Shown: in pieces, positions 2,388-6,043 of the stretch
Layout: each line of letters starts with the position of its first letter
Numbering within the stretch: position 1 is the stretch's first letter
Virus record (IMG/VR): IMGVR_UViG_2737471819_000031
Location: 1 to 6,043 of that record
Source: a virus
Taxonomy: Duplodnaviria > Heunggongvirae > Uroviricota > Caudoviricetes
Reading direction: 5' to 3' (one strand)
Length of the DNA stretch: 6,043 bases
The notes under the pieces: model-generated
Databases searched by the model: none
What the model saw: only the letters and a program-made list of their open reading frames with translations
What the model was told of the DNA's origin: nothing
Position numbers and translations under genes: made by a program

Positions 2388-2684
2388 ATGCCAGCGCCTT
2401 TGTATGGTGCGGATGACGCGCGCCGCTGTTCCGGCAATTCCGTATCGGAGGTGCTGGATAAATTCAGAAAAAACTACGACCTGATAATGTCGCTACCGCA
2501 GGAAACGAAAGAGGAAAAGGAGTTTCGCCACTGTATATGGCTTGCAGAGAAAGAAGAACGCGAGCGAATTTGCCAGACATCAATCCGACCATTCCGCAAA
2601 GCCACATATACCCACTTCCCTGAATATATCGACCCGCGCCTGCGTAATTACCGCTCACGCTATGGCGCTATCAGTAATGACTGA
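2388..2684 (+). CDS. Hypothetical protein (98 aa)
   Basis: SD AAGGA 7 nt upstream of ATG 2388. Basic/acidic soluble protein, not recognised. Confidence 0.55.
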
Positions 2685-2694
2685 GGAATTTACC

Positions 2695-2859
2695 ATGAGA
2701 GGACTTGCATACAATCCCGGCATTCTTCCGGCAGAAATGATTATTCGCCAACGCGTAAAGCCAATGCCATCGAGAGAGGAATTGCTTAAGAGAAACTCGT
2801 TTCCATCAGTGAATCAAAACAAATATCTGAATGCGATGTGGCGGAGTGGGAAGAAATGA
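2695..2859 (+). CDS. Hypothetical small basic protein (54 aa)
   Basis: SD GAGGAA 5 nt upstream of ATG 2695. The longer six-frame ORF from 2542 would overlap the preceding gene by 143 nt and lacks an SD, so the internal start is preferred. Stop overlaps the next start (ATGA). Confidence 0.45.
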
Positions 2860-3371
2860 AACAAATGACACTAATTGAGATGGATGGATTTCTGAAAGGT
2901 AAATGCATCCCATGTGATTTAAAGGTTAACGAAACAAATGCTGAATATCTGGTGCGTAAATTTGCTGAAGCGGAGGCCAAGATTTTGGCTCTGTCCGAAG
3001 ACCAACAGAAAGCGATTGAGTCAATTAAGCAGGCTGATGCAGCTGTTAAGTTGGCACACGAGAAGTTTTCGGCGCTGGCGGCGGAGAATGCGGGGCTGAA
3101 GTCTGGCGCTATGGACGAAATCAAGGTTATCAACCGTGGAGGTCAGGCATATTGCGTAAAAGATGGAGTGCAAGTTAATCCCATGTATGCAAGAGGGTGG
3201 AATGACTATCGCGCAAAGTCTCTGCAATCAGACACCCCAGCCACCGATGCTTTCCTGGCTGATGTACGGGCACAGGGGGTAGAGATGTTTGCTGACCATC
3301 TGTTGTGCCCAGACCTTGATGACACTATCCGTGACTTTGCTGCCCAGCTTCGCAAAGGAGTGCGGTCATGA
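2856..3371 (+). CDS. Hypothetical protein with central coiled-coil region (171 aa)
   Basis: ATG 2856 overlaps the upstream stop (ATGA); GGAG 9 nt upstream. Ala/Glu/Lys-rich predicted helical segment ([47 protein letters not shown]). Six-frame start at 2838 is also possible. Confidence 0.5.
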
Positions 3372-4045
3372 GCAACATCGACAAACGCGCATTACGTCAT
3401 AGCGCAGAAAGCATAATCGGCATTCTGGAAAACATTGCCGGGTTCGAACCATCTGATATCGACGGCGACTCTGTAGAGCTCCGCTTTGAAACTGAGGACG
3501 GTTTCGATACTGGTTGTGACGTTAGCATTGTTGACCAGTGCCAGAAAACCGCTGATGTAGTTCGGGCGATGCTGGATGAGCTGGAAAGAAACCAGCAGTA
3601 CATCAAATCCCGCGACCAGGAGAACGAGGATATTGCGCTAACGGTAGGGAAGCTGCGTGTTGAGCTGGAAGCCGCAGAGAACAACCTTATTGATAGTGAG
3701 TGCCATGTTGCTGAACTGGAAGAAGCGCTACGCGATAAGCAGGCGTTACTTGAAGCATCAGAGAAGCGCATAGCAGAACTGGAAGCTCGGGAAATAAAAC
3801 CAGCCAAAGGTGAAGTTCTTGTCGTTGTTTCTGGTTTTACTGGTTGCGGAAAAAGCGCCATTGCCGGGGAAATAGAAATCGCGATGAAGGCTATTGGTGT
3901 ACCGGTTCAGTGGACTAATGGCGATGCGGAAAAGCGCATGACAGGAGCTGACTGGCTGACAGCGATTGAGATGTACAAACCAACAGTGCGCATCGTGGAA
4001 GTTAATGTGCCACGCGCCGCTGGCATTCGCATCAAAGGAGAGTGA
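3368..4045 (+). CDS. Ead/Ea22-like coiled-coil protein (225 aa)
   Basis: ATGA overlap with the upstream stop; SD AAGGAG 7 nt upstream. N-terminal [10 protein letters not shown]..., a long heptad-like acidic coiled coil ending ...EKRIAELEAREIK and C-terminus ...AAGIRIKGE resemble Ea22-like proteins of enterobacterial lambdoid prophages as I recall them. Synteny fits (between recombination genes and xis). Confidence 0.5.
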   Translation: MSNIDKRALRHSAESIIGILENIAGFEPSDIDGDSVELRFETEDGFDTGCDVSIVDQCQKTADVVRAMLDELERNQQYIKSRDQENEDIALTVGKLRVELEAAENNLIDSECHVAELEEALRDKQALLEASEKRIAELEAREIKPAKGEVLVVVSGFTGCGKSAIAGEIEIAMKAIGVPVQWTNGDAEKRMTGADWLTAIEMYKPTVRIVEVNVPRAAGIRIKGE

Positions 4046-4046
4046 T

Positions 4047-4547
4047 ATGACCACTATTACCAAAGAGCGACTGCTGACAATCAGGCAGTGGCGCGAAACA
4101 TACGGACCTGGTAGCAACGTTGTACTGCCAGCAGAAGAAGCGGAAGAACTGGCACGGATTGCTCTGGCATCGCTGGAAGCAGAACCGGTGGCGTGGAAGG
4201 TAACTTTCACGCAAATTGACCGTGAATATAACACGTTCACTGGTATGTATTCTGACAAAGCAGAAGTCGAACGGTGGGTGCGGCTGCATAAAGCATGTAA
4301 TTTTCTGGCAGATATAACACCGCTTTATACCGCCAAGCCAGTGCCGGTAACTCCGGATGGTTGGATAAGCTGTAGTGAGCGAATGCCGGATAAGTTAATT
4401 CCGGTAATGGTCATGTATGAAGACGGTGAGATGTGGTCTGCAATGTGGAATGGCAATCGCTGGGATGATGGCACCGAATATCCGGATCCGCACTCAGTTA
4501 CGCACTGGTGTGAAATGCCAGCAGCACCGCAGCAGGAGGTGAAGTGA
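4047..4547 (+). CDS. DUF551-like phage protein (166 aa)
   Basis: SD AAGGAG 6 nt upstream of ATG 4047, which lies 1 nt after the upstream stop. C-terminal region WISCSERMPDKLIPVMV...WDDGTEYPDPHSVTHWCEMPAAP matches the DUF551 signature (W-I-S-x-x-D-R-L-P ... V-T-H-W-M-P-L-P) common in the ead region of lambdoid prophages. Confidence 0.6.
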   Translation: MTTITKERLLTIRQWRETYGPGSNVVLPAEEAEELARIALASLEAEPVAWKVTFTQIDREYNTFTGMYSDKAEVERWVRLHKACNFLADITPLYTAKPVPVTPDGWISCSERMPDKLIPVMVMYEDGEMWSAMWNGNRWDDGTEYPDPHSVTHWCEMPAAPQQEVK

Positions 4548-4831
4548 TGGACTCCTTCGCGAAATATACGATTATTGACTGGATAGCATTCCTTCAGGTT
4601 TTGCTCATCTGGTTTTATATGGCTTACAGGAGTGGGCAGTGGATTGTCAGTGTAGCCTGTAGCAAGGGATGGCGTTGGTGGAACCGAAAGAATAAAAAAG
4701 CGCTGGCCTTGGATTCGTTTTACGAAGCATTCAATCTTAACAGCCTTCAGCCTGGTTCTGTCATTGTTGTCACCACTCAAAGCGGCATGACGATACAAAT
4801 TCACAAGCCAAAGGAGGAAGGTCGTGGCTAA
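4547..4831 (+). CDS. Hypothetical small protein with N-terminal hydrophobic helix (94 aa)
   Basis: ATG 4547 shares one base with the DUF551 stop (TGATG); SD AGGAGG 8 nt upstream (six-frame start is GTG 4544). N-terminal IIDWIAFLQVLLIWFYMAY is TM-like, followed by a Trp/Arg-rich stretch (KGWRWWNRKNKK). Confidence 0.5.
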   Translation: MDSFAKYTIIDWIAFLQVLLIWFYMAYRSGQWIVSVACSKGWRWWNRKNKKALALDSFYEAFNLNSLQPGSVIVVTTQSGMTIQIHKPKEEGRG

Positions 4832-5108
4832 CCTGCAACTTGCCGTAAAAGGTGAATACTTCGATGCCATGATTCGCAGAGAGAAAACGGAAGAGTATCG
4901 CCTGTGTAATGACTATTGGAATAAGCGCCTCATTAACCGTAAGTATGACCGCCTGATTATCACAAAGGGATATCCGAAGCGCGACGACTCCAGCCGCAGA
5001 ATTGATGTTCCGTATGACGGATATGAAATCAAGACAATCACACATCCCCACTTCGGCGATAAACCGGTAAAGGTATACGCGATAAAGGTGAATATCGGCA
5101 ATGAATAA
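4824..5108 (+). CDS. ASCH/PUA-like small protein (94 aa), GTG start
   Basis: GTG 4824 is preceded by a near-perfect SD AAGGAGG at 6-nt spacing and overlaps the upstream gene by 8 nt. N-terminal KGEYFDAMIRREKTEEYRL fits the ASCH pattern (compare E. coli YqfB FQDDILAGRKTITIRD as I recall it). Family call is tentative. Confidence 0.5.
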   Translation: MANLQLAVKGEYFDAMIRREKTEEYRLCNDYWNKRLINRKYDRLIITKGYPKRDDSSRRIDVPYDGYEIKTITHPHFGDKPVKVYAIKVNIGNE

Positions 5109-5112
5109 CAAT

Positions 5113-5137
5113 CCTCGCACTCGCGGGGATTTCTTTT
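5113..5137 (+). terminator. Intrinsic terminator ending the coupled gene run
   Basis: RNA stem CCUCGC / GCGGGG (6 bp, one G-U) with loop ACUC, followed by AUUUCUUUUAUC, 5 nt after the stop at 5108. Confidence 0.45.
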
Positions 5138-5180
5138 ATCTGAACTCGCTACGGCGGGTTTTGCTTTATGGAGATGATAA

Positions 5181-5348
5181 ATGCACTTCCGAGTCACAGG
5201 TGAATGGAATGGAGAGCCATTCAACAGAGTTATCGAAGCGGAGAACATCAACGACTGCTACGACCACTGGATGATATGGGCGCAGATAGCACATGCAGAC
5301 GTAACCAATATTCGAATTGAAGAACTGAAAGAACACCAAGCCGCCTGA
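5181..5348 (+). CDS. Hypothetical small protein (55 aa), absent from the six-frame track
   Basis: ATG 5181 with GGAG 7 nt upstream; translation MHFRVTGEWNGEPFNRVIEAENINDCYDHWMIWAQIAHADVTNIRIEELKEHQAA. Its TGA stop sits in the loop of the terminator at 5341..5361. The antisense six-frame ORF 5166..5372 has no such signals. Confidence 0.5.
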   Translation: MHFRVTGEWNGEPFNRVIEAENINDCYDHWMIWAQIAHADVTNIRIEELKEHQAA

Positions 5349-5361
5349 TGGCGGTTTTTTT
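5341..5361 (+). terminator. Intrinsic terminator with a stop codon in the hairpin loop
   Basis: Stem CCGCC / GGCGG with loop TGAT (TGA stop at 5346..5348), followed by a 7-T tract. Confidence 0.65.
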
Positions 5362-5375
5362 ATTGGAGACAAGAA

Positions 5376-5720
5376 ATGTCAGATTTGGCTATGAAGGTTT
5401 TGGAATGGCAATCGACTGGCGATGTCGGCATCAGTAGCGCAACTCTTGCCTCAATCGCATGTGGACTGAAAAAGAATATCTATGGTCATCACTTCGGCGC
5501 TCCACATGACGCAGCAGATTTCCGACGATGCGTTGCACTTGTTGAGCAGATTCCAGAAATCAGAGATTCATTCGACAAGGTTGCAAAGCGCGTTCCGGCA
5601 TTCAAAGGAATCCTCAACGAATGGGATTCACTCGTTGCTCTGTTGAAGTCTGAAATGAAGACGTACGGGAACAAAGCACCAGAGACTTACAGAAGAATCA
5701 GCGAGCTACGCAAGGACTAA
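5376..5720 (+). CDS. Hypothetical protein (114 aa) at the ea8.5 position upstream of xis
   Basis: ATG 5376 with GGAG 7 nt upstream, directly after the terminator T-tract. Soluble, probably helical protein, not recognised. Followed by two tandem terminators. Confidence 0.55.
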   Translation: MSDLAMKVLEWQSTGDVGISSATLASIACGLKKNIYGHHFGAPHDAADFRRCVALVEQIPEIRDSFDKVAKRVPAFKGILNEWDSLVALLKSEMKTYGNKAPETYRRISELRKD

Positions 5721-5723
5721 CCC

Positions 5724-5752
5724 GCCTCACACTCGATGAGGCATTTTCATTT
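5724..5752 (+). terminator. Intrinsic terminator
   Basis: Perfect 6-bp stem GCCTCA / TGAGGC with 7-nt loop, followed by ATTTTCATTT, 3 nt after the stop at 5720. Confidence 0.5.
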
Positions 5753-5777
5753 ATCAAGATATCCAGACCTACCATCG

Positions 5778-5800
5778 CCGCATCAATGCGGTTTTTTATT
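5778..5800 (+). terminator. Intrinsic terminator (second of a tandem pair)
   Basis: Stem CCGCA / TGCGG with loop TCAA, followed by TTTTTTATT. Confidence 0.55.
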
Positions 5801-5842: not shown

Positions 5843-6043
5843 ATGCAACACGAACTACAGCCTGATTCACTGGTTGATTTGAAATTCATCATGGCCGATA
5901 CTGGCTTCGGTAAAACCTTCATCTACGACCGGATTAAGTCCGGCGATCTGCCAAAAGCCAAAGTTATCCACGGACGAGCAAGATGGTTATATCGTGACCA
6001 TTGTGAATTCAAAAATAAGCTCTTAAGCCGCGCCAATGGGTAA
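5843..6043 (+). CDS. xis: AlpA-family DNA-binding protein, putative excisionase (66 aa)
   Basis: GGAG 9 nt upstream of ATG 5843; complete ORF ending in TAA at the last base of the window. LVDLKFIMADTGFGKTFIYDRIKSGDLPKAKVIHGRARWLYRDHCEF matches the AlpA/excisionase-type winged-helix family as I recall it. It is the last gene of the co-oriented operon, where lambdoid phages carry xis ahead of int. Confidence 0.6.
   Translation: MQHELQPDSLVDLKFIMADTGFGKTFIYDRIKSGDLPKAKVIHGRARWLYRDHCEFKNKLLSRANG

Follow-up and report, generated by a model that had tools for sequence, protein, structure and literature searches.

A tightly packed seven-gene block of a P22-like E. coli prophage as part of a mosaic ea/exo-xis-type accessory region

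Seven small genes, packed end to end, lie between the recombination genes and xis in the stretch of prophage DNA analysed here (hereafter the window; 6,043 nucleotides, IMG/VR record IMGVR_UViG_2737471819_000031). We conclude that the interval very probably lies within the long early-left (pL-type) operon of an E. coli prophage of the P22-like/lambdoid kind, and that its genes 2–7 assort individually. The region is of the already known "ea"/exo-xis accessory type. Its gene content would arise by recombination at gene boundaries and inside the genes for coiled-coil proteins, so the seven-gene combination is a recent lineage and not a selected functional cassette. An earlier note on this DNA had described the interval from the recombination genes to xis as variable cargo, and this holds: erf and xis/TorI lie on the same strand and enclose mosaic content. 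The overall gene order appears to be ral, a membrane protein gene, small ORFs, erf, an SSB-like gene, abc2, ea-type genes, two small genes and xis (TorI).

Genes of the block and their packing

The features of the block and its surroundings are as follows.

1195–1365, + strand: orf, ending with a 10-nt gap before erf
1376–1981, + strand: erf (annotated as PF04404 ERF in sibling loci)
1981–2364, + strand: SSB-like gene (phrog_44, single-strand DNA binding protein, E 3.2e-29)
2388–2684, + strand: gene 1, Abc2, anti-RecBCD protein 2, 98 aa
2695–2859, + strand: gene 2, DUF2737 protein, 54 aa
2856–3371, + strand: gene 3, EaE/HkaH-like mosaic protein, 171 aa
3368–4045, + strand: gene 4, Ead/Ea22-like protein, 225 aa
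4047–4547, + strand: gene 5, protein with a C-terminal DUF551 domain, 166 aa
4547–4831, + strand: gene 6, DUF4752 protein with an N-terminal hydrophobic segment, 94 aa
4824–5108, + strand: gene 7, predicted small ASCH/PUA-like protein, 94 aa, GTG start
5110–5139, + strand: terminator-like hairpin 1 and T-tract (9-bp stem, tetraloop, then TTTCTTTT)
5142–5169, + strand: terminator-like hairpin 2 and T-tract (8-bp stem, 5142–5161), conserved with gene 7
5181–5348, + strand: small gene 3' of the hairpins
5376–5720, + strand: small gene 3' of the hairpins
5843–6043, + strand: xis/TorI, product 100% identical to K-12 TorI over 66 aa

The open reading frames confirmed the seven genes and their tight packing as first described, all on the + strand, with junctions from gene 1 to gene 7 of +10, −4 (ATGA), −4 (ATGA), +1, −1 (TGATG) and −8 nt. 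Public assemblies that carry an identical gene 4 contain matching gene calls made independently, and in relatives variable sites are about twice as frequent at codon position 3 of the + frame. The junction geometry fits translational coupling, yet each of the seven genes also carries its own SD-like motif 6–9 nt 5' of the start (AGGA/GGAG up to AGGAGGT). Stop-start overlaps together with these motifs suggest a compact and possibly coupled translation.

Two long antisense open reading frames were considered. The one at 4770–5120 (−) has a PHROG match, but codon-position variability favours the + frame, and it was taken as a shadow ORF. The other, at 3397–3861 (−), also matches a PHROG and was likewise taken as a shadow ORF; its third positions coincide with those of gene 4, so that the codon-position test cannot discriminate there. 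Searches of the whole window with Rfam (E ≤ 1) and with a tRNA scan found nothing, and NCBIfam gave just noise far below cut-off.

The earlier note could offer a family-level guess for only two of the seven genes. This proved wrong, as each of the seven matches a PHROG family (E 1e-38 to 1e-59) and five of them, Abc2 included, a Pfam family. The product of gene 1 aligns over its full length to PF11043 (residues 1–98 on profile positions 1–97 of 97; E 7e-61, 202.9 bits against a cut-off of 25), belongs to phrog_656 'abc2 anti-RecBCD' and matches the chain 'Anti-RecBCD protein 2' of PDB entries 8B1T and 8B1U (E 3.6e-55, residues 1–98 against 1–97). These matches identify gene 1 as Abc2, close to the P22 protein that was solved in complex with RecBCD. 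Pro68, which in the cryo-EM structure sits in the active site of PpiB (PMC9836394), is retained in the sequence of the gene 1 product. As a close homologue of P22 Abc2, this protein would bind the RecC subunit and convert RecBCD, a nuclease that degrades the phage, into an aid to recombination by Erf; gene 1 would functionally be part of the recombination module. The host takeover or counter-defence role proposed earlier for the block thus stands for one gene, which homology marks as a genuine factor of both kinds with RecBCD as its target, and is not supported for seven genes acting as a unit.

Genes 2–7 would be accessory genes of the ea/exo-xis type, presumably non-essential, encoding in order a DUF2737 peptide, an EaE-like coiled coil, an Ea22-type scaffold, and DUF551, DUF4752 and ASCH/PUA-like proteins. 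Gene 2 matches PF10930 (E 2.6e-31, 107.7 bits against a cut-off of 25) and phrog_1117. Gene 3 matched no Pfam family; it belongs to phrog_614 (E 1.6e-58), with further partial matches to five other PHROGs, and its closest phage matches are annotated as EaE / ST104 orf9. The N-terminal 60 amino acids of its product are 54% identical to K-12 YfdS. Recombination breakpoints fall within gene 3 near 2950–2975 and 3225–3275.

Gene 4 probably encodes an Ea22-type coiled-coil scaffold that bears an exchangeable C-terminal domain. Residues 2–139, comprising an N-terminal segment and the coiled coil, align to positions 1–139 of PF13935 (E 5.2e-22, 79.3 bits against a cut-off of 27), and the C-terminal domain (about residues 148–225, ~78 aa) is found joined to many different N-termini. 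This domain contains GFTGCGKS, which fits the Walker A motif GxxxxGK[ST], and G-x-T-G-x-G-K-S is invariant in 26 aligned homologues. Its likeness to P-loop ATPases is at the level of the motif, and ~78 aa is short for that fold. No Pfam match of the domain reached its cut-off (APS_kinase, E 0.01, 16.3 bits where 21.1 is needed), and its profile matched PDB chains over beta1 and Walker A alone (UvrA, ArsA, FtsY; E ≥ 0.012). The sequence search of the domain against solved structures gave spurious or weak matches and returned no Ea22 entry, and an AlphaFold2 model built from the 26 homologues was unreliable (pLDDT 46.6). Judged by its sequence, the domain is a Walker-A-like module that probably differs from the NMR-solved lambda Ea22 type. 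A shared match to phrog_368 raised the possibility that genes 3 and 4 are paralogues; direct BLASTP found no similarity between them (E 12), and the shared match is attributed to coiled-coil or mosaic composition of the PHROG.

In gene 5, residues 105–162 match PF04448 (DUF551; E 4.8e-17, 63 bits against a cut-off of 22). The gene belongs to phrog_60 while its N-terminal part matches separate PHROGs, and breakpoints lie within it near 4175 and 4325–4375. Gene 6 matches PF15944 (E 2.7e-36, 123.9 bits against a cut-off of 27) and phrog_667; residues 8–26 of its product form the 19-residue window of highest mean Kyte-Doolittle hydropathy (1.78). Gene 7 is, on its predicted fold, a small ASCH/PUA-like protein: the model is a PUA-like beta-barrel that resembles solved ASCH proteins. 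Against Pfam, the ASCH model included, gene 7 matched no family even at E ≤ 10, and the profile of its homologues retrieved no ASCH chain from the PDB by sequence. The ASCH/PUA-like fold elsewhere binds or processes modified bases in nucleic acids, and the gene 7 product is a possible binder or hydrolase of modified bases if the model is right.

Mosaic gene content and co-occurrence

The co-occurrence sample was drawn from a single collection of viral contigs, from which the 80 best matches were taken for each of two anchor proteins. A gene counted as present if tblastn gave a match at E ≤ 1e-5 over 30% or more of the query, a threshold under which highly divergent alleles count as absent. Among the 85 distinct Abc2-to-xis intervals, which come from related viral contigs and whose statistics ignore kinship, 25 of the 32 possible presence/absence patterns of genes 3–7 occur, and all seven families are found together in just two. 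No pair among genes 3–7 showed a significant association (Fisher p ≥ 0.08, uncorrected for kinship), the highest-ranking being a weak positive trend between genes 6 and 7 (p = 0.08). Around 140 different architectures were seen in 162 related loci, with gene order kept.

The same picture emerged outside this sample. Of 5,426 complete E. coli genomes, 3,571 contain parts of the block, but no genome has 80% or more of it; nor does any of the 593 matching phage records. The earlier note suggested that the seven genes may act as a unit, and had itself named independent shuffling as the outcome that would speak against this; genes 3–7 do shuffle independently, and neither the rarity of complete sets nor the lack of any record with at least 80% of the block agrees with seven genes that travel together.

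Breakpoints occur at gene edges and inside genes 3–5. The identical gene 4 allele keeps the same neighbours, but the right end takes four different forms: three have different integrases, and the fourth ends at TorI next to host genes. In one sibling locus that has this allele, AntA stands in place of gene 7. An identical block does recur, beside differing integration modules, in about 30 assembly blocks; the proteins are 96–100% identical across those loci, and the recurrence is therefore explained by recent common ancestry.

Smaller functional pairs within the block are unlikely, although they fare better than the other alternatives. One would be Abc2 with DUF2737, an accessory to recombination or to the anti-RecBCD function; the other would join DUF4752, a small protein with a hydrophobic segment, to the ASCH-like protein, a putative binder of nucleic acids, through translational coupling at their 8-nt overlap. 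DUF2737 follows Abc2 in 85/85 distinct intervals, and the 8-nt overlap of genes 6 and 7 is identical in phages HF4s and ST104, which, with the trend noted above for these two genes, leaves room for small sub-modules that may exist within the block. The reverse relation fails for the first pair, however: Abc2 is absent from 13 of the 55 DUF2737 loci, in locus L090 DUF2737 adjoins a RecT/Gp157 module, and Abc2 and DUF2737 are often split by a 301-nt insertion. As for the second pair, DUF4752 is present in only 11 of 73 eligible loci anchored on the ASCH-like gene, and several loci (e.g. L165) carry it without the ASCH-like gene. Adjacency alone can yield such weak linkage.

Hairpins and transcription context

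The earlier note also described a terminator after gene 7. A hairpin with a T-tract is indeed there and is conserved; as the end of a transcription unit it is unlikely, given the same-strand xis downstream and a lambda-N-type antiterminator gene located upstream in a sibling prophage (L163). The stem-loop of hairpin 1 spans 5110–5131 (MFE −14 kcal/mol) and is kept beside gene 7 in most relatives, with compensatory stem changes in one locus (L071). Both hairpins travel with gene 7, and a mosaic junction lies just 3' of hairpin 2: past ...TTTATGGAGA the sequences of the relatives part in at least three ways. The window as a whole is enriched in terminator-like sites (17 against 6.4 ± 2.3 in shuffles), + strand hairpins among them.

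Packing upstream of the block is equally tight, with gaps of 10, −1 and 23 nt between orf, erf, the SSB-like gene and gene 1. A scan for the sigma-70-type consensus found no promoter-like site before 2388 or inside the block, and co-oriented genes (the two small genes, of phrog_676 and phrog_1229) and xis follow it. This does not agree with the seven genes as a self-contained operon. Their co-expression would probably come just from sharing one antiterminated early transcript, presumably from pL. The tandem hairpins would stop unmodified RNA polymerase, and an N-modified polymerase would read through both towards xis.

It is improbable that some of genes 2–7 are instead 'moron'-type genes, expressed from the prophage to protect the lysogen by superinfection exclusion or defence and not early in lytic growth. 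Terminator-like hairpins do bracket genes in the region, and YfdS, the DUF551 protein of a related cryptic prophage, is linked to host H2O2 tolerance in passages cited in PMC10834534 and PMC4776307. Against this, the hairpins individually bracket the two small downstream genes only and not genes 1–7, the block has no promoter-like site in or before it, and the PADLOC defence-system models gave no meaningful match, the sole one being Avs2 (E 0.004, 12.7 bits) over a coiled coil.

That the seven genes together make up a dedicated cassette under joint selection, with products that cooperate in host takeover or counter-defence, is the least probable reading of all and largely refuted by the co-occurrence data, since the tight packing with stop-start overlaps, the conserved 3' hairpin, the recurrence of the identical block beside different integration modules and the presence of one counter-defence protein (gene 1) are set against free assortment of genes 3–7, the lack of any phage record or complete E. 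coli genome with 80% or more of the block, intragenic breakpoints, replacement of gene 7 by AntA, and packing that continues upstream with no predicted promoter of its own.

Relation to known systems and what the mosaic implies

An internal section of an early-left operon with individually assorting genes agrees well with the 'ea' region of P22-like phages (P22, ST104, HK620, HF4s: erf, abc1/abc2, eaE/hkaH, ead/hkaG ... xis-int), which has the same position and orientation. The families follow one another as they do there, namely Abc2, DUF2737 (ST104 orf10), EaE/orf9, Ead/Ea22 (orf8), DUF4752 (orf7) and ASCH (orf6), and the ATGA and 8-nt overlaps recur. The allele combination of the window differs from that of these phages, and in DNA sequence the best phage record extends over only 55% of the block. 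The window also has an SSB-like gene at the position of abc1, a DUF551 gene, the Walker-A-like Ea22 C-terminal domain and a TorI-type xis.

In lambda and Stx phages the exo-xis region (ea22, ea8.5, orf60a, orf61, orf63, orf73) is also variable and located between recombination genes and xis. There too the Ead/Ea22-family protein is made up of an N-terminal segment, a coiled coil and a C-terminal domain that can be exchanged. Lambda and Stx phages transcribe the region early, and DUF551 is known there as a portable domain, among the exchangeable C-terminal domains of the mosaic Ea22 (PMC10834534). Ea22 of lambda and Stx phages is reported to be tetrameric and to have a pro-lysogenic effect (PMC7093339, PMC10834534). 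The window differs in that its recombination module is Erf/Abc2 and not Red/Gam, and its Ea22 C-terminal domain appears unrelated to the solved lambda domain. In the Pfam searches, the window proteins matched no family named for the other exo-xis proteins.

The right end of the window resembles that of the cryptic K-12 prophage CPS-53/KplE1, which reads yfdQ-yfdR-yfdS-yfdT-ypdJ-torI: TorI is identical, and the last 320 nt of the window are 93% identical to K-12. A sibling contig has dsdC-dsdX adjoining, as in K-12, and the prophage type beside dsdC occupies the CPS-53/KplE1 position. K-12 YfdS is a DUF551 protein, and it is its N-terminus that resembles that of gene 3. The K-12 element is, in contrast, a decayed remnant with other accessory genes (yfdQ, yfdR, yfdT), and genes 1, 2 and 4–7 are unmatched there.

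Screens of phage accessory regions likewise describe a hypervariable cluster of small genes that includes known counter-defence genes; Abc2 and Ral served there as known counter-defence controls, and abc1, which adjoins abc2, triggers a P4-encoded abortive system (bioRxiv 10.1101/2023.04.06.535777). By analogy, one or more of the uncharacterised members of the block could act alone as a new counter-defence factor or as the trigger of a host abortive system, a suggestion that we put forward tentatively. The prime candidates would be the Ea22-type scaffold with its Walker-A-like mini-domain, the ASCH/PUA-like protein, and DUF2737 for its constant place after Abc2.

The result matters chiefly as a negative one, in that what looks like a seven-gene operon is one momentary state of an accessory region that recombines, and experiments should therefore aim at single genes and not at the whole block. 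It is nonetheless worth searching the region, with its one anti-RecBCD protein and six widespread families, for individual host-interaction genes.

Anatomy and limits of the block

The seven open reading frames of the block (genes 1 to 7 in order) were found where the earlier note had placed them, in a window whose reading strand is + throughout.

Features within and around the block
1–201, +, 66-aa ORF at the window start; its counterpart in sibling loci is the gene for Ral (restriction alleviation, PF11058)
260–709, +, 149-aa protein without family match; hairpins at 190–211 and 714–731 on either side
1195–1365, +, ORF
1376–1981, +, erf
1981–2364, +, SSB-like gene, 127 aa, phrog_44
2388–2684, +, gene 1
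2695–2859, +, gene 2
2856–3371, +, gene 3
3368–4045, +, gene 4
4047–4547, +, gene 5
4547–4831, +, gene 6
4824–5108, +, gene 7, GTG start
5181–5348, +, small downstream gene, 3′ of the hairpins
5376–5720, +, small downstream gene, 3′ of the hairpins
5843–6043, +, xis, 3′ of the hairpins

The junctions from gene 1 to gene 7 measure +10, −4, −4, +1, −1 and −8 nt, and public assemblies holding an identical gene 4 carry identical gene calls. An SD-like motif (AGGA/GGAG up to AGGAGGT) lies 6–9 nt 5′ of all seven starts, all seven products have PHROG matches (E 1e-38 to 1e-59), and in aligned relatives position 3 of + frame codons is about twofold richer in variable sites (31/21/65 by codon position in gene 7). 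On this evidence the seven genes are real. Two long antisense ORFs, 4770–5120 (−) over gene 7 (phrog_20945, E 3.9e-57) and 3397–3861 (−) over gene 4 (phrog_13760, E 4.8e-36), also have PHROG matches; codon-position variability is on the side of the + frame for the former and fits either frame for the latter, and both look like shadow ORFs that entered the PHROGs via automatic annotation.

The anatomy of the proposed seven-gene operon stands, but its limits do not: tight packing starts 5′ of 2388, with the 1195–1365 ORF, erf and the SSB-like gene (junctions of 10, −1 and 23 nt), co-oriented genes lie past the hairpins, and a scan for sigma-70-type promoters found no site upstream of 2388. The SSB-like gene starts on the last nucleotide of the erf stop codon. 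In L163, a sibling prophage with an identical block, the genes upstream encode a lambda-N-type antiterminator, Ral and, after these, a protein of 149 aa; an integrase lies downstream.

A 9-bp hairpin at 5110–5131 (−14 kcal/mol), followed by TTTCTTTT, and a second hairpin at 5142–5161 are both kept directly 3′ of gene 7 in most related loci, regardless of the next gene, with compensatory stem changes in the related locus L071. Terminator-like hairpins number 17 over the whole window, where 6.4 ± 2.3 would be expected. This arrangement is typical of early operons that depend on antitermination. In lambda-type N systems, pL transcripts are known to read through such hairpins, and by analogy they would also read through those of the window. 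Terminator-like hairpins at 5110–5161, 5338–5357, 5724–5742 and 5777–5792 (+) flank both small downstream genes. The mosaic junction 3′ of gene 7 is immediately past the second hairpin, at ...TTTATGGAGA, beyond which relatives show at least three different continuations.

Identities of the genes

Gene 1 encodes Abc2 (Pfam PF11043, E 7e-61), matches the P22 Abc2 chain of PDB 8B1T/8B1U over its full length (E 3.6e-55) and keeps Pro68. By cryo-EM, Abc2 sits on RecC, and a hijack of RecBCD for Erf-dependent recombination was proposed (PMC9836394). Given this match and this role, gene 1 would belong functionally to the erf module and not to a cargo of unknown function. Abc2 and Ral are reference counter-defence genes in screens of phage accessory regions, and abc1, adjoining abc2, sets off a P4-encoded abortive system (bioRxiv 10.1101/2023.04.06.535777). 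The SSB-like gene, for which no Pfam match was found, sits between erf and abc2, the abc1 position in P22/ST104.

Gene 2 is a DUF2737 gene, gene 6 encodes a DUF4752 protein with a hydrophobic segment at its N-terminus, the C-terminal end of gene 5 is DUF551, and gene 4 has an Ead/Ea22 N-terminal and coiled-coil part. Gene 3 is EaE/HkaH-like, with no Pfam family found. With genes 1, 2, 4, 5 and 6 thus in Pfam families, the earlier note's count of just two members with a family-level guess is too low. Genes 3 and 4 align to positions 2–140 and 200–276 of phrog_14548 (378 positions), and this suggests that segments like them are fused into one protein in some phages.

The motif GFTGCGKS lies within a portable C-terminal mini-domain of gene 4 (~78 aa, residues ~148–225, window 3806–4045, +), joined to many unrelated Ea22-type N-termini via a conserved AELEAREIKP linker. 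Its Walker-A-like residues are invariant and IVE(V/I)N is conserved. Similarity to P-loop ATPases is at the motif level only, the mini-domain seems to fall short of the length of a complete P-loop fold, and its AF2 model was unusable (pLDDT 46.6). Some sources label proteins with this type of domain ‘ATP-binding’.

Assortment of the genes among relatives

A DNA search gave partial matches to the block in 593 phage records; the best of them covers 55% and none as much as 80%. Pieces of it occur in 3,571 of 5,426 complete E. coli genomes, and coverage of at least 80% in none of the 5,426. All window proteins were scored by tblastn (E ≤ 1e-5, ≥30% of the query) in 160 viral contigs, the 80 best matches to each of two anchors, Abc2 and gene 7, in one collection. 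About 140 different architectures were seen; content varies and gene order is nearly always collinear. Of the 32 presence/absence patterns that genes 3–7 could show, 25 occur across 85 distinct complete Abc2-to-right-end intervals; all seven families are together in just two of these intervals, and no pair among genes 3–7 was significantly associated in the Abc2-anchored set (lowest Fisher p 0.08, genes 6/7). Genes 3–7 thus shuffle independently, the outcome that the earlier note had named as refuting its idea, and the proposal that the seven act as a unit in host takeover or counter-defence is not supported.

Breakpoints in DNA similarity cluster at gene edges (~2375, 2675, 4800 and 5350) and within genes 3 (2950–2975, 3225–3275), 4 (3550, 3650–3675) and 5 (4175, 4325–4375), in agreement with the published mosaicism of Ea22 proteins, whose C-terminal domains are exchangeable and in which DUF551 is portable (PMC10834534). 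Abc2 is followed by DUF2737 in 85/85 intervals; DUF2737 occurs without Abc2 in 13 of 55 DUF2737 loci, and in the related locus L090 a RecT/Gp157 module precedes it, with two small genes in between. In many loci, 301 nt are inserted between abc2 and DUF2737.

The exact gene 4 allele recurs with the same neighbours in ~30 assembly blocks (proteins 96–100% identical). At the right end, loci with identical gene 4 come in four arrangements: in three of these an integrase is present, a different one each time, and the fourth stops at TorI next to host genes. One locus with identical gene 4 (L165, 7820–8443) has an AntA/P22_AR_C antirepressor-like gene in the place of gene 7. That the identical block recurs reflects recent common ancestry and exchange of its flanks, and does not speak for a selected cassette. 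In L164, also with identical gene 4, an IS (DDE_Tnp_1 transposase; 3626–4834, −) lies between the SSB-like gene and abc2.

Source prophage and meaning of the block

The xis product, like that of 10311–10511 in the related locus L171, matches E. coli K-12 TorI, the recombination directionality factor of the cryptic prophage CPS-53/KplE1 and a TorR inhibitor, at 100% identity. Over its final 320 nt the window is 93% identical to K-12. In sibling contig L167, xis/TorI is directly followed by dsdC-dsdX-dsdA, as in K-12 (dsdC-dsdX), with no integrase after; this suggests that the prophage lies at argW/dsdC and, like KplE1, has its int at the opposite end. The TorI identity, the K-12 match and dsdC-dsdX in L167 point to an intact relative of CPS-53 as the source of the window. 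The yfdQRST-torI end of CPS-53 is a decayed version of the window's region, and YfdS is a DUF551 protein (PMC4776307).

The block is an ea/exo-xis-type accessory segment of the lambdoid early-left operon, a feature already known, and the six genes after Abc2 belong to widespread families, each assorting individually. What interest remains attaches to individual genes (gene 4 for its Ea22 Walker-A-like domain, gene 7 for its ASCH-like protein, and DUF2737) rather than to the block as a whole.
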